This document shows positions 40,128-59,467 of a stretch of DNA of 64,000 nucleotides, piece after piece. The position numbers were made by a program, and so were the translations under genes. The stretch comes from an uncultured Smithella sp. (GTDB lineage: Bacteria; Desulfobacterota; Syntrophia; Syntrophales; Smithellaceae). Position 1 is the first letter of the stretch. Each line of letters begins with the position of its first letter. Location of the stretch: positions 4,681-68,680 of the forward strand of contig CAZYIE010000011.1 of the NCBI GenBank assembly GCA_964646755.1, read 5' to 3'. Under the pieces are notes generated by a model that searched no databases, had not been told where the DNA came from, and was given only the letters and a program-made list of their open reading frames with translations.

Positions 40128-40168
40128 GAGTCCCGCCGGGAGGAAAATTCAGAGAGGGTGTTGATATA

Positions 40169-41068: not shown

Positions 41069-41076
41069 AAACGTTT

Positions 41077-42111: not shown

Positions 42112-42370
42112 GTTTGTTGCAATGCTGGTACAACATTGATTTTAGAAGAGAATGCTTTATTTCAACCAGCGATAAATGATATAAATTACATTGATTATAA
42201 TGATAGGAATAGGTTGTTTTTATGAGGTGTTGAACTACACCATTGTATGGTCAAAATAATGTAGGATCGCCGGGAAAAAGGCGGCAAGAGGAGTATGTGA
42301 GACTTAACATTTAGCTGATGGAAAAGCCGGTCTGCCGGATCTGTCAATCCATGAAAGGAGCAAATTACCA

Positions 42371-43696: not shown

Positions 43697-43802
43697 TCCA
43701 GTGAAAGACGTAATAAGTAGCCTCGGAGGCCGGTCGTTTCCGCCGGCGTCGAAAAGTCCAAATAGATTAGTGTCAAAATCGATGTCAATGGTTGTTTGCA
43801 CC

Positions 43803-43835
43803 GTCCCTGTCCCCGTTCCACAGCGGGACAGGGAC
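43803..43835 (+). other. perfect 11-bp stem-loop between the hydrolase and SBP genes
   Basis: GTCCCTGTCCC, an 11-nt loop, then GGGACAGGGAC. There is no U-tract. Confidence 0.6.
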
Positions 43836-43874
43836 ACTAATAATATTGACCATATTATAAAAAGGAGGAAGTAT

Positions 43875-45086
43875 ATGAAAATTAGATTGTGGGGATTAAG
43901 CTTGATGTTGGCGGTTGTCTTGTGTCTGTCGGTGCAGAGCGCCTGGGCGGCAACCGTGCGCGGCGTTACAGATAAGGAAATCAAAATAGCCTGTCTCGTC
44001 GACCTTTCCGGACCGGGGAAATACGGCGGCCCGCCTATTGCCGATGCTTTTCGTGATTATGTGGCCTGGGTCAATGATACGGGTGGAATTAGCGGCAGAA
44101 AAATCAATCTGATTGTCGAGGACAACGGGATCCTTCCCACCACAACGATGAATGCGGCCAAGAAAGTGATTCTGAAAGATGAGGTTTTGGCCATTGCCTT
44201 CAACCTGGGCAGTGCTGGTTCCAGCGCGATCGTGCCCCTGTGTGCCGAGAACAAGGTTGTCCTTATGCCCCACGGGGCCAACAAGGGATTCTATCATCCC
44301 GGCAATAAATGGGTCTTCGTGCCCCATACGGTTCAGTTCGGTATGGCTTCCCGGGCGGTTGAGTATATTCTGAGTAAAAATAGCAAGGCGCGGATCGGAG
44401 TCATTTATCAGGATGACGATTTTGGCAAAGAAGGGCTGGAGGGAGCAAGCGCGGCTGCCACGTTCATGAAGACGAAGCTGGTGGCACAGGCTCCTTACAA
44501 GACCGGTACGATCGATTTCACACCGCATATGAATGCCATGAAGGAAGCCAACGTGGACGCAATCGTCCTTTGGACTTACCTGCCCCAGTCAGCAGCGATC
44601 ATTAAACAGAAGGTCAAGATGGCCTGGGATGTTCAGTTGATATCGAACAATACCACGGGCGTCCCGCCGCTCTTTGCTCTGACCGGTGAGGCGGCAGACG
44701 GCTATATGCTGGTCACGCCTTACGCGCCGGGGCACACCGATCTACCGGGGATTAAACGCATCAAGGAGATTAACAAGAAGTACGGCAATGCCGCCAAGAC
44801 CCTGGAAAATCCAGCGTACCCGGACTATCTGTACCTGGCCGGTTGGGGATACATTGAAGCCATGGCCCAGGGGCTGCGCAAGGCCGGTAGGGATTTGAAT
44901 CCCGAGACTTTGGTGAAAGGACTGGAAAGCGTCCATAATTTTGATATGGGCGGTCTGTGTCCAAACATTACTTTTGGACCCAAGCAGCATGTGAGCAGTT
45001 TCTCCAGCCTGATCCTCAAGGCGGACGGAAAAGCCAAGCGTTTTGTCATTGTCGATTCGATTAAGGCGCCTAAGACGCCGCAGTAG
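43875..45086 (+). CDS. periplasmic substrate-binding protein (type I PBP, LivK-like), cassette B
   Basis: ATG 43875 follows AAAGGAGGAA. The signal peptide is MKIRLWGLSLMLAVVLCLSVQSAWA and VNDTGGISGRKI is present. The track ORF's upstream extension from 43701 has no support. Confidence 0.9.
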   Translation: MKIRLWGLSLMLAVVLCLSVQSAWAATVRGVTDKEIKIACLVDLSGPGKYGGPPIADAFRDYVAWVNDTGGISGRKINLIVEDNGILPTTTMNAAKKVILKDEVLAIAFNLGSAGSSAIVPLCAENKVVLMPHGANKGFYHPGNKWVFVPHTVQFGMASRAVEYILSKNSKARIGVIYQDDDFGKEGLEGASAAATFMKTKLVAQAPYKTGTIDFTPHMNAMKEANVDAIVLWTYLPQSAAIIKQKVKMAWDVQLISNNTTGVPPLFALTGEAADGYMLVTPYAPGHTDLPGIKRIKEINKKYGNAAKTLENPAYPDYLYLAGWGYIEAMAQGLRKAGRDLNPETLVKGLESVHNFDMGGLCPNITFGPKQHVSSFSSLILKADGKAKRFVIVDSIKAPKTPQ

Positions 45087-45140
45087 TAGCCGGAATATCG
45101 CTGGTCTGGTAATGCATAGGACCAAAGTCCATTTGTCGAT

Positions 45141-45175
45141 GTTAGGAGGCAGGTAGGTTGTCCCGGCCTCCTAAC
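45141..45175 (+). terminator. terminator-like hairpin after cassette B
   Basis: Perfect 10-bp stem GTTAGGAGGC / GCCTCCTAAC with a 15-nt loop, ~55 nt after the SBP stop. The U-tract is weak. Confidence 0.5.
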
Positions 45176-45467
45176 ATTGGCAGTTTTACAGAAATTATTG
45201 AAATTACTTGATTACAGCCTTCGTAACCTCAAGGTCATCTACGTCGGGAATGATGACAAAAAGGGCAAAATCGACTTTTTACGAGGCCAATTTAGATGAA
45301 ATTTGGCCGCGTTTGATCTGCCGGAGTGTCGGCGAGAGCGTGCCCGCGCAACATATGGATGGTTGCAAAACCGTATGTTGTGCGCTCTCTTGCGTTTTCA
45401 GGGAAACTTCCGGGTTAAGTCCTTGAAATAAAAAGCACTTAATGTAATCAGATGGTTGGCATTTATC

Positions 45468-45496
45468 TTGCAGTAAATGCTGTCTGTTTGTATTAT
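45468..45496 (+). promoter_or_regulatory. candidate promoter of the atypical beta-oxidation module
   Basis: TTGCAG, a 17-nt spacer, then TATTAT. It lies ~35 nt upstream of the GTG start at 45531, which has an AAAGGAGA RBS. Confidence 0.4.
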
Positions 45497-45530: not shown

Positions 45531-46295
45531 GTGGATACATCCTATTTATCATTGGAAGGGAAAGTTGCAGTTGTTACCGGAGGAAGCCGGGGCATTGGTG
45601 AGGCGATAGCATTGGTTTTTGCTGATGCAGGAGCCGATGTGGCTATTTGTAGCCGTAAACTGGAAGATCTGGAAAAGGTTGCTGTGAAAATCAGGGCCAT
45701 GGGACGTAAAGCCCTTGCCGTGCCTATGCACAACCGGGAAATAGACAGTATAAAGAACGGAATTGATGCTATCGTCAAAGAATTCGGGCGGATTGATATT
45801 CTGGTGAATAATGCGGCCACCAATCCCGGCATGGGCTACCTCGTTGATATGGACGAGAAAATGTACGACCAGATCATGGTCACTAACCTCAAGGGTTATA
45901 CCGTCATGAGCCAGCTGGTGGGCAAGATTATGCGCGAGCAGAAGAGCGGCAATATAGTTAATGTCTCTTCTGTCGGCGGCGTAAGTCCCGATAAAGGTTT
46001 GGGATTGTATTGCATTAGTAAAGCCGGCATCGGCATGCTGACCCGCGCTATGGCCAAAGAAATGGGTGAATTCGGTATCCGTGTGAACTGTATCGCACCG
46101 GGTGTGACAAGGACTAAATTCAGCAAAGCTCTGTGGAGCAACGAAGAGATGATGAAGGTGGAAATGGCTCATATGCCGATTAAACGTGTTGCCGAGCCGG
46201 TAGAAATGGGTCGTATAGCATTATTTCTCGCTTCGGAGGCCTCGGCTTACATGACGGGACAGATTCTTGTTGCGGACGGTGGCGGATCAATTTAG
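45531..46295 (+). CDS. short-chain dehydrogenase/reductase (3-oxoacyl / 3-hydroxyacyl reductase-like)
   Basis: 254 aa. Motifs are TGGSRGIG, NNAA and the catalytic S...YCISK. Confidence 0.9.
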   Translation: MDTSYLSLEGKVAVVTGGSRGIGEAIALVFADAGADVAICSRKLEDLEKVAVKIRAMGRKALAVPMHNREIDSIKNGIDAIVKEFGRIDILVNNAATNPGMGYLVDMDEKMYDQIMVTNLKGYTVMSQLVGKIMREQKSGNIVNVSSVGGVSPDKGLGLYCISKAGIGMLTRAMAKEMGEFGIRVNCIAPGVTRTKFSKALWSNEEMMKVEMAHMPIKRVAEPVEMGRIALFLASEASAYMTGQILVADGGGSI

Positions 46296-46418
46296 TTGTG
46301 TCCGGGGCAACATGGTTTCCTGAAAGAGAAAGGAAAACCGGAAGAACTAAGGTCAGAACTGAAGTGTAAGGCAATAAATATTTCAGAAGAGTCAAAAAAT
46401 CAGGAGGTATAAATTACA

Positions 46419-47864
46419 ATGGGCTTAATGACAGCAGATCAATATAGAGAGAGTTTAAACGACGGCAGGGTTGTCTATTACAAAGGCAAGAAGATCGATA
46501 ATGTTTGCGACCATCCCCATCTCGCTGCCTGCGTCAATACGGTGGCCGTGGATTATGAAATGGCCCACGATCCGCAGTACAAGGATCTGGCACTGGTTTA
46601 CGATGAAGAACTCAAAGAAAATATCAGCAGATACAACCATATCCCCAAGAACGGCCAGGATCTGTTGAAGCACCTGGAGCTTATCATCAAGGCAACGGAA
46701 CTGGGGCAAGGATACATTCCCCTGGCCCACGATATCGGCGCCGATGCCATGAACGCCATTGCCATTACGGCCAGGACCATGGGCGAGGCCGGCAAGGTGT
46801 ATGCCGAACGTATCGAAAAATACAGAAAATACTTAAAGCAGACTGATAAATGCGTCGTGGCGGGAGTGACTGATGCCAAAGGCGACCGGCATCTGAAGCC
46901 TTCCGATCCGGGGCAGGCGAATCCCGACTTTCAAGTGCGTCTGGTCAGCAAAGATGATAAAGGGATTATCGTTCGGGGCGCCAAGGTTCATATTACCGGA
47001 GCTGCCTACTGTAACGAATTCTTCGTTATCCCCTGTAAGGCCATGAGTTCTCCCGAGGAAGCTCCCTACGCAGTAGCATTTGCCATCCAGGCCAATGCCA
47101 AGGGGATCCGGCAGATCGTCCGTCCATTCAATGGCCGGATCAGTGATGACGAGTTTCCCCTGGACTCACCGTTGAGAATGATGCACACGGACTCCCTGAT
47201 TATCTTTGATGATGTTTTTGTGCCCTGGGACAGGGTGTTCCTTTGCGGTGAGTGGAAGTTTGCGGCCACCATGGTTTATAATTTTGCGCTGATGCATCGC
47301 CGGACAGGATGCGCCTATCGCATTCCAATGAGCGAGCAACTGCTGGGTATTGCCCAGGCTATCGCCGAGTATAACGGCGTGGCCGACGCCCCCCACGTTA
47401 AGGAAAAGATCACGGAGATCGTAATCTATCTCGAGACGCTCAATGCACTGTCGCGGTCGGCCTGTCTGGATTTCGTGGATCATGCCGGCATTCCCGTTCC
47501 TAATCCCATTACAACAAATATCGCCAAATACCATTTTGCTCACAACTACCACAAGATTTGCGAGATCATTCAGGATCTGGCCGGTGGGCTTCTGGTTACC
47601 GCGCCGACTTACAGAGACTGGATGAACCCCGAAACGCACGAGGACATCAAGAAGTACCTCCAGGGCAGTGCAAAAGTTCCGACGGAGCACAGACTGCGGA
47701 TGTTTGATTTGGTTCGCCGATTGACCGCAGGTGATCTGGAAACGATTTGTCTCCACGGAGAGGGTTCACCCTTTGCGGAAAGAATGACCATTCTGATGGA
47801 AGCGCGAAAGACCATCGCCCGCTGCAAGGCGCTTGCCGAGGAAATGGCAGGTATCAAGAAATAA
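46419..47864 (+). CDS. 4-hydroxybutyryl-CoA dehydratase / vinylacetyl-CoA isomerase (AbfD)-HpaB family protein
   Basis: 481 aa. The N-terminus MTADQYRESLNDGRVVYYKGKKIDNV.DHP and the C-terminus ...AEEMAGIKK closely parallel AbfD as I recall it. AGGAGG RBS is present. Confidence 0.8.
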   Translation: MGLMTADQYRESLNDGRVVYYKGKKIDNVCDHPHLAACVNTVAVDYEMAHDPQYKDLALVYDEELKENISRYNHIPKNGQDLLKHLELIIKATELGQGYIPLAHDIGADAMNAIAITARTMGEAGKVYAERIEKYRKYLKQTDKCVVAGVTDAKGDRHLKPSDPGQANPDFQVRLVSKDDKGIIVRGAKVHITGAAYCNEFFVIPCKAMSSPEEAPYAVAFAIQANAKGIRQIVRPFNGRISDDEFPLDSPLRMMHTDSLIIFDDVFVPWDRVFLCGEWKFAATMVYNFALMHRRTGCAYRIPMSEQLLGIAQAIAEYNGVADAPHVKEKITEIVIYLETLNALSRSACLDFVDHAGIPVPNPITTNIAKYHFAHNYHKICEIIQDLAGGLLVTAPTYRDWMNPETHEDIKKYLQGSAKVPTEHRLRMFDLVRRLTAGDLETICLHGEGSPFAERMTILMEARKTIARCKALAEEMAGIKK

Positions 47865-47883
47865 TTAAACCACAATTGGCTGA

Positions 47884-47919
47884 CGGATGCGACCACCATC
47901 TTACGGTGGTGCGCATCCG
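47884..47919 (+). other. strong GC hairpin after the AbfD-like gene
   Basis: CGGATGCGACCACC, a 7-nt loop, then GGTGGTGCGCATCCG, with one bulge. There is no U-tract. Confidence 0.6.
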
Positions 47920-48032
47920 GAAGGCAATGTGTTCTTGCCGGGTCAGACTTTTCGAAGCATCAGGAAACAAGGCTGGTCCGTGTCGTAATTCTTCTTGTCG
48001 CTTCATAAAAGCGACAGGAATAAAGGACAAAT

Positions 48033-48941
48033 ATGGTGCCCCGAATTTCAACAGAATTCACGGCTATGATGGGAATTCGTTATCCGATTATCGGGGCGCC
48101 AATGTTTTTAGTATCATATGAAGAACTAGTGGTTGCCGTCTGCAATGCCGGAGGATTGGGGATGCTTCCCCTGCCGAATTATCGCACGACGGAACAGTTG
48201 CGGCAGGCCATGGAGGTTATCCGTTCCCAAACGGAGGCGCCGGTGGGTGTCAATATTCATCTCTCCGGGAAGTTTCCCTGGCAGGAACAACTCTCCATCT
48301 GTCTCGATTACGGTGTCAAATTTTTCATTACATCCCTGGGAGATCCCCGTCTGATTCTGGATGCCGTGCATGCCGGCGGGGGATTGGTATTTGCTGATGT
48401 TGTTTCCCTGGCCCAAGGGCGTAAAGCCCGCGAGGGAGGAGTAGATGGCCTGGTGGCTGTAGGGGCCGGGGCCGGGGGCCATGGCGGGCGGGTGTCCACA
48501 CTTATTCTCGTGCCCTATCTTAGAGAGAAAATCGGACTGCCCGTTGTTGCGGCCGGGGGAATCAGTACAGGAGCGCAGATGGCCTCAGCAATTGCCTGCG
48601 GCGCCTGTGCGGTGATCGTGGGGACGCGACTTGTCGCCACACCCGAATCCCGCGCATCCGATGCCTACAAACAGGCGCTTATAGATACTGATCCCGAGGG
48701 GATAGTCTGTACAAACCGGGTAACTGGAAACCCGGCGAACTGGATCGCAGCAAGTATCGCGGATATAGAGGAGAGGCCGCCGCTGACGTCGAAAAAATGG
48801 CTCGATTTCTGGAGTGCCGGGCAGAGCGTGGCCCAGGTGCAAGATATAAAACCGGCGGCACAGATTGTCGCCGAAATGGTAAATGAATATTGCGAAACGT
48901 GCCGGCGGCTGCCGGGCACGATGATGTCAGAAGAATTGTGA
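48033..48941 (+). CDS. nitronate monooxygenase / FabK-like FMN enoyl reductase family protein
   Basis: 302 aa. Motifs are YPIIGAPM, AGGLGMLP and AAGGISTG. Confidence 0.82.
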   Translation: MVPRISTEFTAMMGIRYPIIGAPMFLVSYEELVVAVCNAGGLGMLPLPNYRTTEQLRQAMEVIRSQTEAPVGVNIHLSGKFPWQEQLSICLDYGVKFFITSLGDPRLILDAVHAGGGLVFADVVSLAQGRKAREGGVDGLVAVGAGAGGHGGRVSTLILVPYLREKIGLPVVAAGGISTGAQMASAIACGACAVIVGTRLVATPESRASDAYKQALIDTDPEGIVCTNRVTGNPANWIAASIADIEERPPLTSKKWLDFWSAGQSVAQVQDIKPAAQIVAEMVNEYCETCRRLPGTMMSEEL

Positions 48942-48960
48942 TCATGTAAGGAGGTCAACC

Positions 48961-50145
48961 ATGAGTAAACTGAAAGGTAAGGCGGCGTTCATTGGGATCG
49001 GCGAGGTTCCCACAGGACGCTTTCCGGAGACAGCGGCGATCTATCATGCGATAGAATCAGCTAAGCTGGCGATACGTGATGCGGGAATAAACAAGGATGA
49101 GATTGATTATGTGCTGCCGACGGCAGCCCTGTATAGTCCTGCATTCAATACGGAGCTGGTGACGTGCCGTGTTGTGGAAGAACTGGGATTGAAAAATGTG
49201 AAGAAGAACTGCCAGTTATTCGCGGGTGGATCAAGCAGCACTTGCATCACGGAGGTCGCGGCAAGTCTGATTAACAGCGGCGCGGCAAATACGATTTTAT
49301 TCGTTCATGCGGACCGGTTGGGAACGGGAGTAACCGCCCAGGGCGGCATTGACCTGTTCTCGACGGCGGGAATATCGGCGGAGTGGGAAGTGCCCTTCGG
49401 TCAGCACTATTCGGCGATAGCGGCGCTGTCCACAATGCGTTACAAACATGAGACGGGATGCACGGATGAACAACTGGCGGCGGTCTGTGTTTCGAATCGC
49501 AAATGGGCGCTGTTGAATCCCAATGCTTTTTTTAATAAACCGTTGACAATAGAAGAGGTGATGGCATCGAAAATGCTGTCAACGCCGCTGCGGGCGAAGA
49601 TGTCGAATATGTTGTTCGACGGCGGCTGTGCTTTTATTATAACGTCGGCTGAGCGTGCCCGCGCTGTTGCGAAGAAACCGGTATATCTGCTGGGCGAAGG
49701 TGGTGTGGTGACACACTTCGTGTTTTCCCAGGAGCCGGATGTGGCGCGTTTCGGTTGGGCGCGAGCGGGAAAGGCCGCGTTCGAGATGGCGGGGCTTACG
49801 CCGCAGGACATGGATATTGCGGAGATTTATGATTCCTATCCTATCTATCAGATGATCGGTTTTGAAGAGCTGGGCTTTGCCAAGCGTGGCGAGGGTGGCG
49901 AGATGTTCCTGCGCGGCGATACTTGGCCCGGTGGTAAGATGCCGACGACGACCAATGGCGGGATGCTGTCCCAGGGTCATACAGGCGCGGGCGGAGCCTG
50001 CGCCCTGATGGTGGAGACAGTGCGTCAGTTGATGGGCAAAGCCGGAGATCGTCAGGTTAAGGATGCGAAATTCGCCGTGGAAACGGCTGTTGGAGGGACC
50101 TACATGGATGCCCAGGTGACAATTCTGGGGACAGAAATTCCGTAG
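48961..50145 (+). CDS. SCP-x/Ltp-type thiolase-fold protein, partner of the downstream DUF35 protein
   Basis: 394 aa. Contains NGGMLSQGHTGAGGA. The expected nucleophile region reads FAGGSSSTC. AAGGAGG RBS is present. Confidence 0.85.
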   Translation: MSKLKGKAAFIGIGEVPTGRFPETAAIYHAIESAKLAIRDAGINKDEIDYVLPTAALYSPAFNTELVTCRVVEELGLKNVKKNCQLFAGGSSSTCITEVAASLINSGAANTILFVHADRLGTGVTAQGGIDLFSTAGISAEWEVPFGQHYSAIAALSTMRYKHETGCTDEQLAAVCVSNRKWALLNPNAFFNKPLTIEEVMASKMLSTPLRAKMSNMLFDGGCAFIITSAERARAVAKKPVYLLGEGGVVTHFVFSQEPDVARFGWARAGKAAFEMAGLTPQDMDIAEIYDSYPIYQMIGFEELGFAKRGEGGEMFLRGDTWPGGKMPTTTNGGMLSQGHTGAGGACALMVETVRQLMGKAGDRQVKDAKFAVETAVGGTYMDAQVTILGTEIP

Positions 50146-50164
50146 GATGAAAGGAGATAAGAAG

Positions 50165-50584
50165 ATGGATACACCCGTAAAACCAAAACCGGTTCCCGTA
50201 GTTAATCCCTGGGCGAAGCCCTTTTGGGATGCTGCCCGGGAAGAGAAACTGGTTATTCAGCATTGCAAGGACTGTGGGGCGAATATTTTTTATCCGCGGA
50301 TTGCCTGTCCGAATTGTTTTTCGGATAATGTAGAGTGGATTCAGGCATCGGGGAAAGCGACAGTTTATACTTACACGGTCGTGGAGAGCAATCCCCCGTC
50401 GGCTTTTATTGTTGATCTGCCGTATGTAGTAGCGGTGGTGAAACTGGCGGAAGGGGTTCAGATGTTGAGCAATATTGTGGGTTGCAAGCCGGAGGATGTG
50501 CGTTGCGACATGCCTGTGGAGGTAGTGTTCGAGACGCTCAACGAGGAGTTTAAGCTTCCCAAGTTCCGTCCTGTAAGTAAATAG
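50165..50584 (+). CDS. DUF35 Zn-ribbon plus OB-fold protein
   Basis: The Zn ribbon is CKDCGANIFYPRIACPNC and the OB segment is GKATVYTYTVVES...VVAVVKLAEGVQ. ATG 50165 follows AAAGGAGA. The track start is at 50147. Confidence 0.85.
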   Translation: MDTPVKPKPVPVVNPWAKPFWDAAREEKLVIQHCKDCGANIFYPRIACPNCFSDNVEWIQASGKATVYTYTVVESNPPSAFIVDLPYVVAVVKLAEGVQMLSNIVGCKPEDVRCDMPVEVVFETLNEEFKLPKFRPVSK

Positions 50585-50612
50585 GGAACGGCTATTTTAA
50601 GGAGAGTCAACG

Positions 50613-51062
50613 ATGACGCAGAAATATTACGAAGATTTTGATATCGGGTTTAATTTCAAGACGCTGTCCATTACGGTGACGGAAACGCACGTGGTAAACT
50701 GGGCCGGTCTGACGATGGATTTTTACCCGCTGCATATGGACGCTGAGTTTTGTGCAAAGACGGTATTTAAGGAGCGGATCGCCCATGGTCCTTTGATTTT
50801 CGGCATGGCCGTCGGTATGGCTGGTCTGGCGAAAATGGAAGGTGGTTCGATCATTGCCTGGATGGGTGCGGATAAAATGCGGATGCTGGCCCCGGTAAAG
50901 TTCGGGGACACGATTACGCTCTATGTGGAAGTTGTGGAGCGCAAAGAAACGAGTAAACCGTCGCAGGGGTTGCAGACTTGGCGCTATACTGTGAAGAACC
51001 AGCGCGACGAGGCCGTCATGGTTTTCGATATGAAGTTTCTCATGCAACGGAAGGCTGTATGA
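50613..51062 (+). CDS. MaoC-like (R)-specific enoyl-CoA hydratase (single hot-dog fold)
   Basis: 149 aa. Contains TVTETHVVNWAGLTMDFYPLHMD...AHG. AAGGAGAG RBS is present. Confidence 0.85.
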   Translation: MTQKYYEDFDIGFNFKTLSITVTETHVVNWAGLTMDFYPLHMDAEFCAKTVFKERIAHGPLIFGMAVGMAGLAKMEGGSIIAWMGADKMRMLAPVKFGDTITLYVEVVERKETSKPSQGLQTWRYTVKNQRDEAVMVFDMKFLMQRKAV

Positions 51063-51132
51063 CGTCTGATTTGTCAGAAACCACGAATTTATTCAGGGGT
51101 ATCTGAGCGAAATCATCGGAAGGAGACCGAAA

Positions 51133-52281
51133 GTGGATTTTAATTTTACAGATAAGCAGAATACATTGCGTGACAAGGTGCGGGGATATGTAGATAACAA
51201 TATTGCCCCGGCCTTGATCCGAGAAATTGAAGAAAAGGATGAGTTCCCCCATGATCTGGTGAAGAAATTTTGTGATCTGGGTCTGGCCAAAGTCAATATA
51301 CCTGAGGCTTACGGTGGTCTGGGAGGCGACATCGTGGATCTGATGATTGTCTTTGAGGAGATCGCTAAAAAACTTCCGGTGCTGTGCTGGAACCTGGGCA
51401 ACATCCTCTTGTATGGCAATGAAATTATCGGCGTTAACGGTAATCAGGAACAAAAGGACGAATTCCTGCCGAAACTGGCCGCAGGCGAAATCATGTTCAG
51501 TTTTGCCATTACGGAACCGAACGCCGGGTCCGATGCCGCCAGTATTAAAACGCGGGCGTTTTTCGAAAACGGGCATTACGTGATCAATGGCGGCAAGATG
51601 TTCATTACCGGTGCGGGGGTTTCGACTTATGCGGTGACGTTTGCCCGGACGGCTGAATCTAAATACAATGGGATCACGTCTTTTATCGTGGACAAGTCCC
51701 TGGAAGGCTACAGCGCTAAAAACATCAAGAAGCTCGGCTTTCACGGCTCCAATACCTGTGAAGTGGTCTATGACAACGTCCGGGTCTTGCCGCGTTTTAT
51801 CCTGGGCGGAGAAGAAAAGGGGCTTAACAACGGCTGGAAACAGGAGATGAAGCTTCTGAATCAGGAGCGACTCGTTCTGTCATCAATGACATTGGGGATG
51901 GCGCAAGCCTCGTTCGATGAGGCTCTGAAGTTCGCCCGCGAGAAGATGAAGCGGACTGCTCCGTCAACGGATGTGCAGTCCATTCAGCACGACATCGCCG
52001 AAATGGCGTCCGAACTGGAGGCGATGAAGGTGCTGGCTTACAGCACTGCCTGGAAAGAAGCGCAGGGTATGGACCCGGTGCGGGAAACCTCTATGACCAA
52101 GTACTTCTGCGCGGAAACGGCCAAGCACATAATCATGAAGGGCATGAACGTCCTGGGTGCCAGCGGCGCTTCGATGGATTACGATATGCAGAGAAACCTG
52201 AGAGAAATTCTCATTTTTTCCATCGGCGGCGGTACTTCACAGATCCAGAAGAACATTATCTGCAAGACGTTCGGACTGTAA
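51133..52281 (+). CDS. acyl-CoA dehydrogenase (standard ~380 aa form)
   Basis: 382 aa with a GTG start after GGAAGGAG. Contains FAITEPNAGSDAAS and SIGGGTSQIQKNII. Confidence 0.92.
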   Translation: MDFNFTDKQNTLRDKVRGYVDNNIAPALIREIEEKDEFPHDLVKKFCDLGLAKVNIPEAYGGLGGDIVDLMIVFEEIAKKLPVLCWNLGNILLYGNEIIGVNGNQEQKDEFLPKLAAGEIMFSFAITEPNAGSDAASIKTRAFFENGHYVINGGKMFITGAGVSTYAVTFARTAESKYNGITSFIVDKSLEGYSAKNIKKLGFHGSNTCEVVYDNVRVLPRFILGGEEKGLNNGWKQEMKLLNQERLVLSSMTLGMAQASFDEALKFAREKMKRTAPSTDVQSIQHDIAEMASELEAMKVLAYSTAWKEAQGMDPVRETSMTKYFCAETAKHIIMKGMNVLGASGASMDYDMQRNLREILIFSIGGGTSQIQKNIICKTFGL

Positions 52282-52307
52282 AATCGAGAAAGGGAGGATA
52301 TCAATAC

Positions 52308-54317
52308 ATGGGACAGATTTTTGCCTGTGAAAATCAGGATGGTATAGCCGTGGTAAGGTTTGATGTACCCGGCGAACAGATGAATACATGGACAGAAGGA
52401 GCCATTGCGGATTTTAACACTATGCTGGCATTCCTGGAAAAAGAGAAAAGCGCTTATAAAGGGGTGATCTTCATATCCGGCAAAGCTTCTAATTTTCATG
52501 CCGGCGCCAATCTCAATATGTTGGGATCGGAGAAGAATCTCGACGACTTCCGTAAAGGGTGCGATGAGTTCAACGGCATGTTTGTCCGTCTGGAGAATCT
52601 CGGGATTCCTACAGTGGCCGCCATTAATGGCCCCTGCATGGGTGGAGGTTACGAATTTGCCCTGACGATGATGGCACGGATGGCGACCGACAGCAAGCGA
52701 ACTACCATCGGCCTGCCCGAGTGTAACGTAGGAGTTATCCCCGGAGCGGGTGGCACGCAGCGTCTTCCCCGCCTGATCGGTTATCCTGCTCTGGATTTTA
52801 TTCCCCGAGGCGCGGTACTTCCGGCGGCCAAGGCAATGGAAGCAGGCATGATCGACCGGGTCATCCCGGAGGCGGACGATCTGCTGGCGAAAGCGAAAGA
52901 ATTTTTATTGGAAATAGTTGCCGGTACGGCCGGATTAAAGCGGGCGAAACCGGATCTTTCCTCTCTGGATGCAGCCCTGGAGGCGGCAAAGAAGAATGTT
53001 CTGAAGGCGACGCGGGGCCGGGCAATTCCGGCGCCGATGCTGGCCCTCAAGGCCATGAGCGAAGGTTTGAAGGTGTCGATCGAACAGGGCCTGAAAATTG
53101 AAACGGATTGTTTTATCGAAGCACTGAAAGCCCCTGAATCCAAGGGAACGATTAACACGTTCTTCCTGAAAACAATGTCCGACAAGCCGAAGGCAATGAT
53201 ACCCAAAGGCTTCGAACCCAAACCCATCCGGAAATTCGGTGTGCTCGGTTTCGGCACGATGGGGCGGGGGATCATTATCAACATCCTTATCCGTACCAAA
53301 CTGCCGGTTGTCGTCAAGGATGTTCCCGAGGCACTGGAGCCGGGAATGGCATTCATCCGCGGTATTCTTGAGGGCATGGCGGCAAAGAAGCGGCTGAAGG
53401 ACCCTGTCGAAAGCCTGATGGCCCTGGTGAAACCTGTGGCAGAATGGACGGATGATTTCAAAGATGTCGACGTGGTCATCGAAGCCGTTTTCGAAGATCC
53501 CGCCATCAAGGATAAGGTCTACAAGGAACTGTGCCAGGTTGTGGCGAAAGACTGTCTGCTCGCGACAAATACATCGAGTCTGCCGGTAGACAAGCTCGCG
53601 GGAAGCGTCCTGAATCCGGATCGTTTTATCGGCGCCCATTTCTTCTCTCCAGTCTGGATGATGGAACTCCTGGAGGTGATCCGTGGCAAAGAGACCAGCG
53701 AGGCCACGGTGAACAACATGCTGGCGGTCTGTGCAGCTCTAGGCAAGCGCCCGGTTGTCTGCAACGACAACCCCGGATTCGTGGTTAATGCGATGCTCTT
53801 CCCCTACTTTATCAAATCCTTTGAGCTCCTGGCGGAAGGTGTGGCGATGGAAAAGATCGATGCCGCCATGATGAAGTTCGGCCTGCCGGTGGGTCCCATC
53901 CGTCTGACCGACGAGGTTGGGATTGACGTATCCTATCTAGTCCTGACGAAATCTTTAGGAATGGTGCCGCCTGTGGCCCTGGAAAATATTTATAAGGCCG
54001 GTCGTTACGGACGCAACAAAAACGGCAAGGGATTTTATACTAAGGAAGGCGCCCCCGATCCGGAGGCTCTGCCCCTGGTTAACCCGGACAATAAACAAAA
54101 GGAATATTCTGTAGCCGAGCTGCAGGAAATGCTCTTTACCCCCTTTGTCCAAACCGGATATGAGCTCTTGCAAAAGAAGGTAGTTAGTGATCCCCGGTCG
54201 ATCGATATCGGCGCCATTTGGGGAGTCGGCTTCCCCTCGGACAAGGGAGGTCCGATGAAATGGGCCGATCTTATCGGTTTGAGTGAGAAGCTTTATGGAA
54301 AGAAATTTTATAAATAA
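52308..54317 (+). CDS. bifunctional enoyl-CoA hydratase (N-terminal) / 3-hydroxyacyl-CoA dehydrogenase (C-terminal), FadB-type order
   Basis: 669 aa. The crotonase region is FHAGANL...CMGGGYEFAL. The Rossmann motif is FGVLGFGTMGRGI. Confidence 0.9.
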   Translation: MGQIFACENQDGIAVVRFDVPGEQMNTWTEGAIADFNTMLAFLEKEKSAYKGVIFISGKASNFHAGANLNMLGSEKNLDDFRKGCDEFNGMFVRLENLGIPTVAAINGPCMGGGYEFALTMMARMATDSKRTTIGLPECNVGVIPGAGGTQRLPRLIGYPALDFIPRGAVLPAAKAMEAGMIDRVIPEADDLLAKAKEFLLEIVAGTAGLKRAKPDLSSLDAALEAAKKNVLKATRGRAIPAPMLALKAMSEGLKVSIEQGLKIETDCFIEALKAPESKGTINTFFLKTMSDKPKAMIPKGFEPKPIRKFGVLGFGTMGRGIIINILIRTKLPVVVKDVPEALEPGMAFIRGILEGMAAKKRLKDPVESLMALVKPVAEWTDDFKDVDVVIEAVFEDPAIKDKVYKELCQVVAKDCLLATNTSSLPVDKLAGSVLNPDRFIGAHFFSPVWMMELLEVIRGKETSEATVNNMLAVCAALGKRPVVCNDNPGFVVNAMLFPYFIKSFELLAEGVAMEKIDAAMMKFGLPVGPIRLTDEVGIDVSYLVLTKSLGMVPPVALENIYKAGRYGRNKNGKGFYTKEGAPDPEALPLVNPDNKQKEYSVAELQEMLFTPFVQTGYELLQKKVVSDPRSIDIGAIWGVGFPSDKGGPMKWADLIGLSEKLYGKKFYK

Positions 54318-54400
54318 TAACTGAATCGTCAGCCGCCGGATCGCCCGCTTATTTTTAGAAACGAACGATCCGGATGACCGGCGAAAAGAGGAGGACTATT

Positions 54401-55984
54401 ATGACAACAATGTTTCACGGTATCAGCTGTGCCGATTTGTACGACCGATCGGTCGCGGCATTCCGGCAGAATACCGCCATTCTTTTCAATGACGAAAAAT
54501 ATACCTACGATGACCTGCAGAAGAACGCCTACTCGCTGGCGAACGCCATGCACAAGCTGGGGCTCAAGAAGGGAGATCGGGTTGGTTTTCTTATGGCCAA
54601 CTGCCCGGAATACATTTTCGCGGAGTACGCTCTGGGCAAACTGGGGATGGTTCGCATTCCGCTGGCCGTACTGCTCAATTCCAAAGATCATATTTACATG
54701 CTGAACCAGTCCGAATGCAAAGTGCTGATCTACCATGAGAAGATGGCAGCCCGGGTACAGGAGATGATTCCTTCACTCGAGACGGTCAAGCATTTCATTT
54801 GCGTGGCTAAGGATTCGGCGAAAGTTCCGGCCGGACATGAGCACATGCAGAGCCTTATCGCCAAAAATCTGCCGGAAGTGCCCAAGGTCGAGCATGATTG
54901 CGAAGATCTGGTCGGTATTTTTTATACCGGCGGTACTACGGGCCTTCCCAAAGGTGTGATGCTGACCCAGAATACCTGGGTGGGAACATTCATCAGCGAG
55001 ATGCTGCACCTTGGTTTGGATTGGGATGAAACATTTGCCTTTGCCACGCCTTTGACCCATGCGGGCGGTTGTTTGATCCTGCCGGTTCTGCTGAAACGGG
55101 GAATCTGCGAGATCCATGACCATTTTGATCCGAAGATATTTCTGGAGCGGGTGGAGAAGGTAAAGATAACGTCTACATTCATTGTGCCTACGATGATCTA
55201 TGTTCTTCTGGACCATCCGGACCTCAAAAAATACGATCTGTCGAGTCTGCGCAACGTAATTTATGGTGCATCCGCCATTGCTCCGGCCCGCCTGAAGCAG
55301 GCAGTAGATACTCTGGGTCCGATATTCACCCAGCTTTTCGGCCAAACAGAAACTCCCATGATGATCAGTGCCCTGTCCCGCCAGGAACATGTCATTGCGG
55401 ATCCGGAAAAACGGATGAAGATTTACACATCCTGCGGCAGGCCCGTGATGTCAGCCGACGTGCGCATTATCGGTGAAGACGGCAAAGAAGTTCCTCAGGG
55501 AGAATCTGGCGATATCGTCTGCCGGACAATAAACATGATGTCCGGCTATCTCAAGAATCCGGAACAGACTGCGGAGACAATCCGGGACGGATTTTTGTGG
55601 ACAGGAGATGTCGGCAAGTTCGATGAAGAAGGCTATCTCTACATCGTGGACCGTTCCAAGGACATGATCGTCAGTGGCGGCTTCAACATTTTCCCCCGGG
55701 AGATTGAGGATACCCTCCATGAACATCCGGCGGTAAAGAGTGCCGCAGTTATTGGTGTGCCGCATGAAAAGTGGGGTGAACTGGTCAAAGCCATTGTGGT
55801 TTTGCACAAGGATAAGCCGGCCACTGAAGAAGAGTTGATCAATTTCGTGAAGTCGAAAAAGGGAAGTCTGGTTACCCCCAAGAGTGTCGAGTTCTGGGAG
55901 GAGATTCCGCTCACGAATCTGGGAAAAATTGATAAGAAAAAGATCCGGGCACCCTTCTGGAAGGGCCATGATCGAAAAGTGTAA
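54401..55984 (+). CDS. medium/long-chain acyl-CoA synthetase (class I adenylate-forming, 527 aa)
   Basis: ATG 54401 follows GAGGAGG. Motifs are FYTGGTTGLPKG, TGDVGKFDEEGYLYIVDRSKD and LGKIDKK. Confidence 0.9.
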   Translation: MTTMFHGISCADLYDRSVAAFRQNTAILFNDEKYTYDDLQKNAYSLANAMHKLGLKKGDRVGFLMANCPEYIFAEYALGKLGMVRIPLAVLLNSKDHIYMLNQSECKVLIYHEKMAARVQEMIPSLETVKHFICVAKDSAKVPAGHEHMQSLIAKNLPEVPKVEHDCEDLVGIFYTGGTTGLPKGVMLTQNTWVGTFISEMLHLGLDWDETFAFATPLTHAGGCLILPVLLKRGICEIHDHFDPKIFLERVEKVKITSTFIVPTMIYVLLDHPDLKKYDLSSLRNVIYGASAIAPARLKQAVDTLGPIFTQLFGQTETPMMISALSRQEHVIADPEKRMKIYTSCGRPVMSADVRIIGEDGKEVPQGESGDIVCRTINMMSGYLKNPEQTAETIRDGFLWTGDVGKFDEEGYLYIVDRSKDMIVSGGFNIFPREIEDTLHEHPAVKSAAVIGVPHEKWGELVKAIVVLHKDKPATEEELINFVKSKKGSLVTPKSVEFWEEIPLTNLGKIDKKKIRAPFWKGHDRKV

Positions 55985-56008
55985 ATAATTGTCCTTGCGG
56001 GGATATGG

Positions 56009-56040
56009 GGGTAGGCAGACCGGTAAAGGTCTGCCTACCC
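56009..56040 (+). other. perfect 13-bp stem-loop between the CoA ligase and the next ACAD
   Basis: GGGTAGGCAGACC, loop GGTAAA, then GGTCTGCCTACCC. There is no U-tract. Confidence 0.65.
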
Positions 56041-56074
56041 TAAACTCAGAATGTAAAGAGAAAAGGAATAAAAA

Positions 56075-57217
56075 ATGGATTTCGCACTGACTGAAGAACA
56101 GGGATTTGTTAAAGATACGATACAGAAGTTTGTGGCGAAAGAGTGTGAGCGGGAAGCCATCAAAAAAATGGATGAAGAAGGGATATTCCCCGGAAAACTC
56201 TTTGGCAATGTGGCCGATATTGGTCTTTGCGCGTTAACCGTTCCCGAAGCCTATGGCGGCGGTGGACCCAATACCTTGGGGGCGGTTATCGTGACCGCCG
56301 AACTTGCGGCCATTTATCCCGCATTGGCCGGAGCTTTTGCCACCCAGAGTTTTTGCGGGGGCAAGGTTATTGCCGATGTAGGGACCGAGGCGCAGAAAAA
56401 CAAATATCTTCCCGGTGTGATTGATGGATCAGCACTGATTACGCTAGCCCTGATGGAACCGGGGCAGGGTTATGAGGAAACGGGCAATATGACGATAGCC
56501 CGGCCGGAAGGTGAACAGTTTGTTCTCAACGGAACAAAAACGTTTGTGCGCCTGGCCGATCGGGCCGCTTTTATGATTACACGCGTTGCGATAGCGAGCA
56601 CCGAAGGTGTCCCGGCTTTTCTGATTGTCGATATGAAGAGCCCCGGGATCGTTGTCCGTCCGCTTGCGCAGGTCGGATTTCACGGCATGAGCCTTTGTGA
56701 GGTGTCGCTGAACTCCGTTACTGTTGGGGCAAGTGAGCGTCTCGGTGGTGATGCCGACGCAGCAGCTGAGCAAAAGAAATTTGAACGGATCATGAGCGCC
56801 GAACATCTGGCTGTCGCAGCCTGCGGGATGGGACTGGCGAAGGGCGCTTATGAATATGCGCTCAATTATGCCAAGGAGCGCTCACAGTTCGGCCGGCCGA
56901 TTATCAAGTTTGGCGCCATCCAGGAAATTCTGGTGGATATGGCCCAACACGTACGCGTAGCGGAGCTGATGACTTGTCAGGCTGCATCTCTTGCTGATCA
57001 AGGGAAGGATTGTCTGGCTGAAATTATTCAGGCGCGGCTGGTGGCAACCCAAGCGGCGCGCAAGGCATCACTGCATTGTGTGCAGATTTTCGGTGGCTAT
57101 GGTTATGCTATGGAATACGATGCTCAACGTTATTTGCGGGATGCCATGGTAGTGCTCAGCGGAGGCGGAACCAAGCAGACCTTAAGCAACACGCTGGCGT
57201 CACTCTGGAATTATTGA
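56075..57217 (+). CDS. acyl-CoA dehydrogenase (standard ~380 aa form)
   Basis: 380 aa. It is ACAD-like throughout (..LALMEPGQGY.., ..FGGYGYAMEYDAQRYLRDA..). Confidence 0.88.
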   Translation: MDFALTEEQGFVKDTIQKFVAKECEREAIKKMDEEGIFPGKLFGNVADIGLCALTVPEAYGGGGPNTLGAVIVTAELAAIYPALAGAFATQSFCGGKVIADVGTEAQKNKYLPGVIDGSALITLALMEPGQGYEETGNMTIARPEGEQFVLNGTKTFVRLADRAAFMITRVAIASTEGVPAFLIVDMKSPGIVVRPLAQVGFHGMSLCEVSLNSVTVGASERLGGDADAAAEQKKFERIMSAEHLAVAACGMGLAKGAYEYALNYAKERSQFGRPIIKFGAIQEILVDMAQHVRVAELMTCQAASLADQGKDCLAEIIQARLVATQAARKASLHCVQIFGGYGYAMEYDAQRYLRDAMVVLSGGGTKQTLSNTLASLWNY

Positions 57218-57452
57218 ATCAACGTTCTTTGAAAAAGAAAAAGCTTTTTCTTTTATGGGATGATTTACCATCCATTCCCATAACGCATATGTAATAGTAT
57301 CAGTATCAACTTAATTGCAAATTGAAATCAGAGGTGGCGGCCTTATTGGGGTTGCCGTAAGCAGTTCCGTTTTTTCTGATGAATAAGATCGTAGGCAAGG
57401 GGGGCGAATATCCGAAAAGGGGGTGTTTTGCCTTGTCAAGGGTGGGGAGAGT

Positions 57453-57480: not shown

Positions 57481-57504
57481 ACTTTATTATTGAGGAGGCG
57501 ACGT

Positions 57505-58698
57505 ATGAGAAAGGGTTTGTTTTGGATACTGTTGGTGATTACGTGCATGTCCCTGCCGGTTGCTGCAATGGCGGCCGACACTCCGGGTGTGACCAAAGAC
57601 GAGGTCGTAATCGGTATGACCTGTCCCATGTCCGGACCGGCAGCCCTGTGGAGCGCTATGGCGCTCGGCAATTCAGCCTGGGCCAAACATATTAATGATC
57701 AGGGCGGCATTCACGGACGCAAAATCAAGTTTGTGGTTAAAGATGACGGGTACAACCCGAGTCGGGCACTAGCCAATCTTACGGAAATGAAGAACGACGT
57801 CCTCGCGTTCGGATGCGTGATTGGATCGGCTACGGCCAATGCCAGCAAGGATTTTCTCTTAACGAGCAAGGTGCCGGTAGTGCATGTCCACGCCAACCCC
57901 CGCATCTGGTTAGCGACACCAACCGCCGAGCGGCGGCACATTTTTATCGCCTATCCTGACTACATCGACGAGGCCGAAGCTGTTACAAACTATGCCGTCA
58001 CCAAGCTGGGGATTAAGACCATCGCCCTGTTCGGCCAGAACGACGATTGGGGAAAATCAGCCGAGATCGGCATTCAGAAAGCTATCAAGAAACTGGGCAA
58101 TAAAGGAAAATTTGCCGGCTTCATAACCTTTGAGCCGACAGACCGTGCTGTGGGTGGCCATGCCCTGAAACTCAAGGAACTGGGCGCCGATGCCGTAATT
58201 ATCTACGGACCGCCGACTCAGGCGGCACTAATCATTAAAGAAATGTCCAAGATCGGTTATAAACCAAAGATTTTCACCGCCAATCCACTGGGCGATCCCC
58301 TGATGTACAAGATAGCCGGCCCATTGTGGGAAGGTGCTTATCCCGCTGCTTCTGGTAATGTTTCGATGCCCGGGATAGAGCCACAGGCCGATAAGATCGT
58401 CGAAATTCTTCTGAAGTACGAACCGGCTTTAAAGGGGCGGGAATTTCTCGCTGTGACCGGCGCCACGACGATGATGCTGATAGCTGAAGGCTTGAAAAAA
58501 GCCGGCCCGAACCTGACGCGCGATAGTTTCGTCAAGGCGATGGAGAGCATCAAAGATTTCAAATGTGAGGGGATGGGTGCTCCCATTACCTTCTCCGCCA
58601 CTCAACACCACGGACTGAATGCTATCCGGGTCTGTGAGGCGAAAGATGGAAAGCATGTGCCGATCAGCGGGTACATGATCTTTAAACCCCTATTTTAA
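57505..58698 (+). CDS. periplasmic substrate-binding protein (type I PBP, LivK-like), cassette C
   Basis: 397 aa from ATG 57505. A signal peptide ends ..PVAAMAA. Contains INDQGGIHGRKI. Confidence 0.9.
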   Translation: MRKGLFWILLVITCMSLPVAAMAADTPGVTKDEVVIGMTCPMSGPAALWSAMALGNSAWAKHINDQGGIHGRKIKFVVKDDGYNPSRALANLTEMKNDVLAFGCVIGSATANASKDFLLTSKVPVVHVHANPRIWLATPTAERRHIFIAYPDYIDEAEAVTNYAVTKLGIKTIALFGQNDDWGKSAEIGIQKAIKKLGNKGKFAGFITFEPTDRAVGGHALKLKELGADAVIIYGPPTQAALIIKEMSKIGYKPKIFTANPLGDPLMYKIAGPLWEGAYPAASGNVSMPGIEPQADKIVEILLKYEPALKGREFLAVTGATTMMLIAEGLKKAGPNLTRDSFVKAMESIKDFKCEGMGAPITFSATQHHGLNAIRVCEAKDGKHVPISGYMIFKPLF

Positions 58699-58713
58699 GG
58701 TGATTTGAAGAAA

Positions 58714-59466: not shown

Positions 59467-59467
59467 A

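Follow-up and report, generated by a model that had tools for sequence, protein, structure and literature searches.

Ten co-directional genes on the forward strand fill positions 45531-57217 of a 64,000-nucleotide stretch of DNA from an uncultured Smithella sp. (contig CAZYIE010000011.1 of assembly GCA_964646755.1; the whole stretch is hereafter called the window). We rate this block as a variant accessory acyl-CoA catabolic operon, and the best reading of the encoded proteins is an inducible accessory pathway in which the C-C bond would be cut by a hydratase and a retro-aldolase and not by thiolysis. It is, in our judgment, an evenly balanced proposition that the block belongs to a sigma-54-controlled catabolic module that imports and degrades a lipid-like acid which ordinary beta-oxidation cannot finish; our confidence in any specific substrate is much lower. 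The block contains two enzyme clades whose database names appear to be contradicted by their predicted active sites: a thiolase-like protein labelled acetyl-CoA acetyltransferase in public databases, and a flavoprotein of the AbfD/HpaB family, many orthologs of which are annotated by the Joint Genome Institute (JGI) as 4-hydroxybutyryl-CoA dehydratase/vinylacetyl-CoA isomerase. Family calls were made by Pfam and NCBIfam scans of the open reading frames (ORFs) of the window, and the window proteins were mapped by tblastn onto 60 related loci (numbered with the prefix L), comprising 56 fetched because they encode AbfD-like relatives and 4 from earlier look-ups, all ORFs of which were clustered. 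Almost all of these loci are metagenome-assembled genomes (MAGs). The tested genes of the window were identical to those of JGI metagenome contig Ga0207193_1000334, its closest relatives are Syntrophales and Smithellaceae MAGs, and the host is probably a Syntrophales-type anaerobe that transcribes the module as two units.

The "thiolase" of the operon is predicted not to be a thiolase and looks like a steroid-type aldolase. In an alignment with an archaeal thiolase (7yvy), Ltp2 (6ok1) and Sal (9myr), the position of the nucleophilic Cys is occupied by Gly (FAGGSSS, aligned with AACASG in 7yvy, GYGGGAA in 6ok1 and LGGASS in 9myr), YDSY stands in place of the HDCF motif of SCP2 thiolases, and the His of the GH(P) loop is kept; the Gly, the YDSY and the retained His are common to all of the 19 orthologs. 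Tyr290, within EIYDSYP, aligns with Tyr294 of Ltp2, Ser292 falls at the position of Cys304 of Sal, and His340 at that of Tyr344 in Ltp2 and Gln352 in Sal. Ltp2 (YDHF plus Tyr344) and Sal (YDCY, with Tyr302 and Cys304) have been shown by experiment to be Cys-less retro-aldolases, bound to the DUF35 domain of a MaoC hydratase, in which the Tyr that opens the motif serves as catalytic base, and the C304S substitution inactivates CtSal (Rolfe et al. 2025, PMC12329534). The window protein has neither Tyr344 nor Cys304, the residues that define the catalytic acid in Ltp2 and Sal, and His340 is proposed to act as the acid instead. The top solved match, an uncharacterised Sphaerobacter structure (4u4e, 199 bits), carries the same pattern of YDS(F/Y) plus His, and together with the window protein it would represent a third active-site pattern beside those of Ltp2 and Sal.

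The genes that accompany the aldolase-like gene follow in the order DUF35, MaoC and acyl-CoA dehydrogenase. The DUF35 protein contains a C4 zinc ribbon (CKDC-x11-CPNC) and presumably pairs with the aldolase-like protein. Its best solved matches are the DUF35 domains of ChsH2 (82 bits) and CtShy (81 bits), followed by the DUF35 protein of the archaeal thiolase/HMG-CoA synthase complex (61 bits) and BbsA (30 bits). The MaoC protein has an intact catalytic motif (D-x2-P-x-H). The (R)-hydration and DUF35-assisted C-C cleavage suggested in a preliminary description of this DNA are plausible. Shy is a MaoC-DUF35 fusion that binds Sal via its DUF35 domain (Schroeter et al. 2024, PMC11321319), and the module, in which DUF35 and MaoC are encoded by adjacent but separate genes, appears to be a split version of this arrangement. 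In working logic, the closest known systems are the hydratase-aldolase pairs Shy-Sal of Comamonas testosteroni (9MYR) and ChsH1-ChsH2-Ltp2 of actinobacteria (6OK1). The module shares with them the Cys-less SCP2-thiolase fold, the YDxx motif with its Tyr (residue 290 in the window protein, Tyr302 in Sal and Tyr294 in Ltp2), a DUF35 protein with a zinc ribbon, for which their own partner domains are the two best matches among solved structures, an adjacent MaoC hydratase and an acyl-CoA dehydrogenase in the same operon. It differs from them in several respects: (i) YDSY is combined with His340, compared with YDCY and Gln352 in Sal and YDHF and Tyr344 in Ltp2, and the proposed acid residue therefore differs; (ii) the DUF35 protein is unfused, and MaoC is a single hot-dog protein of 149 amino acids; (iii) the module is carried by strict anaerobes, and no feature of it suggests steroids; and (iv) no adjacent pair of acyl-CoA dehydrogenase genes is seen, unlike in the steroid systems, where such pairs form heterotetramers. 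Because the catalytic acid of Ltp2 and Sal is missing and there is no link to steroids, the module was not filed in either family.

The second mislabelled protein is a member of the AbfD/HpaB superfamily that lacks most of the residues by which AbfD is defined. It matches the solved AbfD structures 1u8v (240 bits) and 6vjr (223 bits) better than HpaB oxygenases (at most 172 bits), and the fold is full length, with Pfam scores of 266 bits for HpaB_N and 185 bits for HpaB and an alignment that spans residues 2-490 of 1u8v. The ligands of the AbfD [4Fe-4S] cluster, which we take to be Cys99, Cys103, Cys299 and His292, are all present in both solved AbfD sequences. In 1u8v numbering, the window protein and all of its 44 clade members have Pro for Cys99, Asp for Cys103 and Tyr for Cys299, so that three of the four ligands are gone and only His292 is kept throughout. 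The same sequences have Gly or Ala for Tyr296, Ile, Val or Ser for Glu455, and Glu for Ala460; with Asp for Glu257 in the window protein and the clade, none of the active-site residues Tyr296, Glu257 and Glu455 of AbfD is retained. Arg replaces Lys300 in the window protein and the clade, and Thr190 is kept, with Ser in 3 of the 44 members. The cluster site is occupied by the clade-invariant polar residues His104, Asp105, Tyr300, Arg301 and Glu448, and Cys298 is found in 31 of 44 members. Since the changes are invariant in 44/44 members, these proteins form a distinct clade with a predicted polar His-Asp/Tyr/Glu pocket at the cluster site. To judge from these residues, the site that holds the cluster in AbfD cannot hold it in the window protein, and AbfD-like activity cannot be assumed. 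Second AbfD/HpaB paralogs, 38% identical to the window protein, are encoded in two related loci (L011 6179-7624, reverse strand, and L044 8353-9876). They were considered as an in-genome contrast of the canonical AbfD type and rejected, as the canonical cluster ligands are absent there too; these anaerobes therefore carry several distinct cluster-less paralogs. A literature search on the AbfD-like clade, its partners and its taxa found no paper on the module, and papers on methanogenic naphthalene degradation, on the benzene "Magic" cluster and on Desulfomonile grown on palmitate proved unrelated to it; a search for the names of the cluster ligands returned nothing.

Both acyl-CoA dehydrogenases (ACAD1 and ACAD2) read GGGT for YEGT, with Gly replacing Glu376 of medium-chain acyl-CoA dehydrogenase (MCAD), and carry a Glu in the helix equivalent to that of MCAD Thr255 (NQERL in ACAD1 and SAEHL in ACAD2), a position associated with isovaleryl-CoA dehydrogenase (IVD) and long-chain acyl-CoA dehydrogenase (LCAD). 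The base pattern of ACAD1 is kept in all 23 orthologs with readable sequence. In mammalian enzymes this position of the base goes with branched or bulky substrates, and by analogy it gives a hint of such substrates here. IVD structures are among the closer matches (186-191 bits); overall, however, the window proteins are closer to dehydrogenases of the Bcd/CarC type (5lnx, 234 bits; 5ol2, 213 bits; 6fah, 211 bits), which use Glu376, and the base shift therefore sits on a different scaffold. The NMO-family protein is FabK-like without being FabK: solved FabK enoyl-ACP reductases match it at 113-134 bits (5gvj, 134 bits) and nitronate monooxygenases at no more than 86 bits, and its score against TIGR03151 is 158 bits, compared with a cut-off of 453. 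Unlike FabK, it is encoded in a CoA-ester catabolic operon and not in a fab cluster, and its thioester partner is therefore presumably CoA; a relation to the steroid enzyme IpdC is conceivable. The FadJ-like fusion scores 493 bits against FadJ, below the cut-off of 869, and keeps both crotonase Glu residues, and the short-chain dehydrogenase/reductase (SDR) is a generic classical member of its family that matched only structural-genomics or generic entries.

The module was found in Syntrophales, Desulfomonilaceae, Desulfobacterales, SAR324 and one Ardenticatenaceae MAG. Dozens of loci in other genomes show the same set of genes, and its arrangement is not due to chance. The AbfD-like gene adjoins the SDR gene in most loci of Thermodesulfobacteriota, SAR324 and Ardenticatenaceae (64-98% identity), and the SDR is its tightest partner, being adjacent in most loci outside the Dehalococcoidia that are long enough to show it. 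In 24 related loci each, the FabK-like gene and the ACAD1 gene are grouped with the AbfD-like/SDR pair. Wherever the thiolase-like, DUF35 and MaoC genes are found, they stand together in this order, and MaoC follows DUF35 in every thiolase-like-bearing locus with enough flank. In the Desulfomonilaceae-type arrangement, the AbfD-like and SDR genes are followed by the whole ABC/ligase cassette of the type found upstream in the window and then by the FabK-like and ACAD1 genes, and since the cassette at 36696-45086 thus has its counterpart inside the module, it is counted as part of it. The module is consequently larger than the interval 45531-57217 and often travels with the upstream importer/ligase cassette. 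Two genes are more restricted, with orthologs of the second ligase (at least 61% identity) occurring only in Syntrophales-type loci and one SAR324 locus (L040), and those of ACAD2 (at least 72% identity) only in close relatives.

Other lineages add genes to this set. In 25 related loci (L023, L024, L030, L032-L041 and others), the stretch of about 1.6 kb that immediately precedes the AbfD-like gene encodes a very divergent flavoprotein of the CrtI/amine-oxidase fold (about 527 amino acids, e.g., L024 3516-5255); known families match its FAD-binding N-terminus only. In some Syntrophales loci, an HMG-CoA-synthase-like/DUF35 fusion and a true SCP2-type thiolase (HDCF, Cys present) directly follow the AbfD-like gene (L013 3807-5342 and L016 12680-14284, with the same positions in L014, L020 and L021), an insertion that resembles the archaeal thiolase/HMG-CoA synthase/DUF35 complex. 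The AbfD-like homologs of Dehalococcoidia (54-56% identity) have neighbors unrelated to the module. The cluster-less residue pattern is seen as well in the homologs of five Dehalococcoidia/Chloroflexia loci (L043, L049, L052, L053 and L057), and the conserved neighborhood of the Dehalococcoidia type includes a methyltransferase-like and a thioredoxin-domain-like gene, with no acyl-CoA enzymes.

The features of the block and of the adjoining DNA are collected in Table 1. The preliminary description had the direction and the order of the genes right and, while itself listing ten, counted eleven; an eleventh ORF (47747-48121) overlaps the ends of two real genes and is probably spurious. Intergenic gaps within the block are 1-168 bp. 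All of the earlier family calls were reproduced by the scans, the two flanking importer/ligase cassettes are real (36696-45086 and 57490-63099, the latter continuing further), and the module is indeed atypical, with enzymes beyond those of a plain cycle. In contrast, the complete standard cycle claimed for the interval is not there, because the one thiolase-like protein encoded in it lacks the catalytic Cys; the closest gene for a true thiolase lies outside the interval, at 34690-35880. Pfam scans of nearly all non-overlapped ORFs of at least 120 amino acids revealed no glycyl-radical or CoA-transferase family in the window, as had been stated before, and Rfam and tRNA scans of the window returned nothing.

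Table 1. Genes and predicted control elements of the module and its flanks (window coordinates)
Feature	Position	Strand	Basis or remark
Sigma-54 type -24/-12 promoter-like element TGGCATCTGTCTTGCA	36600-36615	+	96 nt before first ABC ATPase gene
Upstream Liv-type importer, two ABC ATPase genes	36696-37490, 37478-38266	+	Pfam ABC_tran, BCA_ABC_TP_C
Long-chain-type acyl-CoA ligase of upstream cassette	38220-40127	+	Pfam AMP-binding + AMP-binding_C_3; co-conserved with module
Two permease genes	40169-41068, 41077-42111	+	Pfam BPD_transp_2; co-conserved with module
Secreted beta-lactamase-fold serine hydrolase	42371-43696	+	Pfam Beta-lactamase
Periplasmic substrate-binding protein	43701-45086	+	Pfam Peripla_BP_6 from residue 93
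10-bp inverted repeat (tgttaggagg ... cctcctaaca)	45140-45176	+	After binding-protein gene; read from sequence
Sigma-54 type -24/-12 promoter-like element TGGCATTTATCTTGCA	45457-45472	+	74 nt before SDR start codon
Classical SDR oxidoreductase	45531-46295	+	Pfam adh_short; TGGSRGIG + YCISK motifs
AbfD/HpaB-family flavoprotein	46419-47864	+	Pfam HpaB_N + HpaB
FabK-like FMN enzyme, putative enoyl-thioester reductase	48033-48941	+	Pfam NMO
SCP2-thiolase-fold protein, putative retro-aldolase	48961-50145	+	Thiolase_C_1; nucleophilic Cys replaced
Stand-alone DUF35 protein	50147-50584	+	Pfam zf-ChsH2 + OB_ChsH2_C (zinc ribbon + OB fold)
Single-domain MaoC (R)-specific enoyl-CoA hydratase	50613-51062	+	Pfam MaoC_dehydratas
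Acyl-CoA dehydrogenase ACAD1	51133-52281	+	Pfam ACAD domains
FadJ-like fusion, enoyl-CoA hydratase + (S)-3-hydroxyacyl-CoA dehydrogenase	52308-54317	+	Pfam ECH_1 + 3HCDH_N/3HCDH
Second acyl-CoA ligase, within enzyme operon	54374-55984	+	Pfam AMP-binding + AMP-binding_C
Second acyl-CoA dehydrogenase ACAD2	56075-57217	+	Pfam
Terminator-like hairpin + T run	57347-57379	+	9-pair stem 57347-57369, then TTTTTTCTGA; after last gene (ACAD2)
Downstream Liv-type ABC/ligase cassette	57490-63099, continues past 63099	+	Pfam: binding protein, two ATPases, ligase, permease

The simplest reading of the predicted control elements is two sigma-54 operons, one for the importer and one for the enzymes. Both promoter-like elements read TGGCAT-N5-CTTGCA and have the GG at -24 and the GC at -12 at the proper distance; the one before the importer has a single mismatch to TGGCAC-N5-TTGCW and also precedes the orthologous ATPase gene in two related loci (L009 and L011). 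In a scan of 1.08 Mb (the related loci and the window) with the stricter motif TGGCAY-N5-YTGCH, 27 matches fell on the module strand compared with 4 on the opposite strand, and 18 of these 27 lay 20-220 nt upstream of SDR orthologs and 4 upstream of the first ATPase gene. A relaxed sigma-54 pattern with two mismatches occurred across the window no more often than chance would predict (31 sites, compared with 32 expected), and sigma-70 promoter-like sites in the window scan were likewise at chance level; only the near-exact intergenic sigma-54 matches and their conservation carry weight. The inverted repeat that follows the binding-protein gene got no score in the terminator scan and may mark where the importer transcript ends. 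In 14 related loci of the Desulfomonilaceae type (e.g., L011 945-4064, reverse strand), a divergent gene upstream of the module encodes a protein of about 1040 amino acids whose long helical N-terminal region, central AAA+ domain and C-terminal helix-turn-helix, read from the sequence alone, make it look like a candidate sigma-54 enhancer-binding protein. It has no homolog in the 64-kb window, so the cognate activator may lie outside it.

In loci of the Desulfomonilaceae type, the upstream ATPase genes accompany the AbfD-like and SDR genes and are conserved at 63-79% identity. The cassette ligase has a FadD11-like family as its top NCBIfam match, at 371 bits and below the cut-off of 950, and the binding protein of the importer matched only structural-genomics or generic entries. 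The true start of this binding protein is probably near position 43846, because blastn similarity to its relatives begins at 43846-43862. The segment 42114-43845 is without counterpart in any related locus, even in those about 90% identical in the flanking DNA, and the hydrolase gene, located between the permease and binding-protein genes of the importer, is an insertion confined to the window lineage; its translation has an N-terminal hydrophobic leader and an SVTK motif, and one possible role of the hydrolase is that of an esterase releasing the transported acid from ester linkage. The downstream-type cassette lies directly upstream of the module in one related locus (L020), and elsewhere its link to the module is loose. 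With a third importer/ligase cassette at 20744-27964, three paralogous Liv-type ABC importers lie within 43 kb, each with its own long-chain-type acyl-CoA ligase gene, and the ligases of the three cassettes form one cluster at 45% identity. A classical long-chain beta-oxidation set occupies 28146-35880; it is headed by a gene (28146-29762) for a 538-amino-acid thiolase-like protein with a TLP1 additional C-terminal domain. The remainder of the window consists of housekeeping genes.

The enzyme families suggest the following course of the pathway: (i) the Liv-type importer would take up a lipid-like acid, of which the cassette ligase would make the CoA ester; (ii) an acyl-CoA dehydrogenase would form the 2-enoyl-CoA, which MaoC would hydrate to the (3R)-hydroxyacyl-CoA; (iii) the DUF35/aldolase-like pair would split the C-alpha/C-beta bond by retro-aldol cleavage, with Tyr290 as base and His340 as the likely acid, to give acetyl- or propionyl-CoA and an aldehyde or ketone; (iv) an enzyme encoded outside the operon would oxidise this aldehyde or ketone, after which the second ligase would activate it once more; (v) the FadJ-like enzyme and a thiolase encoded elsewhere would handle ordinary positions; and (vi) the trio of AbfD-like flavoenzyme, SDR and FabK-like enzyme, joined in other lineages by the CrtI-fold flavoprotein, would convert whatever feature of the chain stops the cycle, for instance a double bond in a shifted position or a hydroxy or oxo group at the gamma carbon. 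Aldolytic cleavage is sensible for a tertiary or hindered 3-hydroxy group, as in Ltp2, and this logic, together with dehydrogenases of the IVD/LCAD type, is a pointer to methyl-branched, isoprenoid-type or alicyclic acids. Our guess at the substrate class from the types of enzyme is accordingly a methyl-branched (isoprenoid-type) or otherwise bulky or alicyclic acid. A parallel may be seen in a study of methanogenic limonene degradation, which proposes that an enzyme of the HMG-CoA synthase family cleaves a tertiary 3-hydroxyacyl-CoA (PMC12583861).

Several observations weigh against this pathway. The ten annotated genes of the operon include no aldehyde dehydrogenase or other enzyme for the predicted aldehyde or ketone, and to activate the product anew after every cleavage with an AMP-forming ligase is expensive for a syntroph. 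As C304S inactivates Sal and the window protein has Ser at this position, catalysis needs a different acid, and the thiolase-like protein could instead be a non-catalytic scaffold. The AbfD-like clade has four further conserved Cys (38, 206, 276 and 349), which might lie close together in space. The AbfD-like/SDR/NMO/ACAD1 set of the Desulfomonilaceae type is often found without the aldolase triad nearby, so that there may be two functional units and not one pathway. Finally, the CrtI-fold flavoprotein, present in most related loci, is absent from the window, and the window version may therefore be incomplete or depend on a copy elsewhere.

Other explanations can account for parts of the gene set. 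The operon could serve as an accessory set for those straight-chain fatty acids of plant and microbial lipids that are unsaturated or bear mid-chain hydroxy or oxo groups. On this view, 4-oxoacyl-CoA and 4-hydroxyacyl-CoA would be interconverted by the SDR, the AbfD-like enzyme would act as a dehydratase on 4-hydroxyacyl-CoA or move a double bond from the 3-enoyl to the 2-enoyl position, dienoyl-CoA would be the substrate of the FabK-like reductase, and the epimerising (R)-hydratase would be MaoC. AbfD is both a 4-hydroxyacyl-CoA dehydratase and a 3,2-enoyl isomerase, and the window protein is closest to it; enoyl thioesters are reduced by FabK-type enzymes, the importer cassettes have long-chain-type ligases, the whole neighborhood is a fatty-acid island with its classical beta-oxidation set, and the superfamily of the CrtI-fold partner of related loci includes a fatty-acid double-bond isomerase. 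We consider this explanation unlikely, as it leaves the Cys-less aldolase-type enzyme with its DUF35 partner and the IVD/LCAD-type base of both dehydrogenases unexplained, and the equivalents of AbfD Tyr296 and Glu455 are replaced. Operation in the reductive direction, with SDR, MaoC and FabK-like enzyme as an (R)-specific trio for CoA-dependent chain elongation or as an electron sink, is improbable: the candidate for the condensing enzyme has no nucleophilic Cys, two acyl-CoA dehydrogenases, a FadJ-like enzyme, two ligases and the linkage to an importer do not fit, and the SDR is linked to the AbfD-like gene and not to MaoC. What speaks for it is that type II fatty-acid synthesis uses these same three families, with FabG and FabK among the top NCBIfam or PDB matches, that archaeal thiolase/DUF35 pairs act in condensation (6esq), and that some related loci encode the HMG-CoA-synthase-like/DUF35 fusion with a true SCP2-type thiolase.

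The possibility that all these enzymes are redundant isozymes for ordinary straight-chain beta-oxidation beside extra importers, which the preliminary description had named as an outcome that would overturn its view, is contradicted by altered active sites that are invariant across lineages 55-98% identical. No gene of the module looks redundant or decaying. An operon that lacks a functional thiolase, has AbfD-like, FabK-like, MaoC and DUF35 proteins without a role in a plain cycle and possesses its own predicted sigma-54 promoters makes this possibility quite improbable, even though the window has a classical beta-oxidation set in addition to its three importer/ligase cassettes, the thiolase-like protein bears the acetyl-CoA acetyltransferase label, and Syntrophales live on fatty acids (PMC12583861). 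The analogy to the bbs operon, drawn earlier, fares worse, and bbs-like beta-oxidation of arylsuccinate or alkylsuccinate intermediates is very improbable. Smithellaceae do include fumarate-adding alkane degraders (PMC12583861), and an acyl-CoA dehydrogenase, a hydratase, an SDR and a C-C cleaving enzyme with an attached DUF35 subunit follow a general logic similar to that of BbsG, BbsH, BbsCD and the thiolase BbsAB. Scores against the BbsB and BbsA models are, however, 118 and 41 bits, compared with cut-offs of 750 and 250, and by its structural matches the DUF35 protein is nearer to ChsH2 and Shy than to BbsA. BbsB is named a thiolase in its PDB entry and acts by a thiolytic mechanism, whereas the window protein has no nucleophilic Cys, and the hydratase is of the MaoC type, unlike BbsH, a crotonase-family hydratase. 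Furthermore, no succinyl-CoA transferase such as the succinyl-CoA:benzylsuccinate CoA-transferase BbsEF, glycyl-radical enzyme, mutase or carboxyl transferase was seen in the window or among the recurrent families of the related loci. Metabolism of 4-hydroxybutyrate or 4-aminobutyrate through a true 4-hydroxybutyryl-CoA dehydratase would agree with the JGI annotation of many of the orthologs and with AbfD as the top solved relative; the loss of three of four cluster ligands and of the Tyr296 and Glu455 equivalents in 44/44 members, and the absence of a 4-hydroxybutyrate CoA-transferase and a succinic semialdehyde reductase among the annotated genes of the window, make it extremely improbable.

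A more specific form of the hydratase/retro-aldolase pathway, which we put forward as distinctly unlikely in its full detail, is a widespread, strictly anaerobic, non-thiolytic route for beta-branched (isoprenoid-type, e.g., phytol-derived) or alicyclic lipid acids. In its first part, an IVD-type dehydrogenase, MaoC and a new DUF35-bound retro-aldolase of the Tyr/His type could take off the branch carbon in the form of acetyl- or propionyl-CoA, with a ketone or aldehyde as the other product; in its second part, the cluster-less AbfD-family flavoenzyme could carry out a non-radical dehydration at the gamma position or a double-bond shift. A literature search for isoprenoid ketone formation from phytol found nothing. 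If this route were true, it would imply two new enzyme activities and provide a genetic basis for isoprenoid ketone formation in anoxic sediments.

To conclude, the labels acetyl-CoA acetyltransferase and 4-hydroxybutyryl-CoA dehydratase appear to be contradicted by the active sites of the two clades, and metabolic models of Syntrophales, Desulfomonilaceae and their relatives in which these proteins are counted as thiolase or AbfD would therefore be wrong at these steps. The cluster-less AbfD clade is a defined target for finding a new flavoenzyme reaction, and the module points to a branched, cyclic or otherwise modified lipid acid usable by syntrophs and sulfate reducers. The DUF35-bound retro-aldolases characterised to date all come from aerobic degraders of steroids, and a third active-site variant, conserved in strict anaerobes not yet in culture, would bring retro-aldolase chemistry into anoxic carbon turnover.

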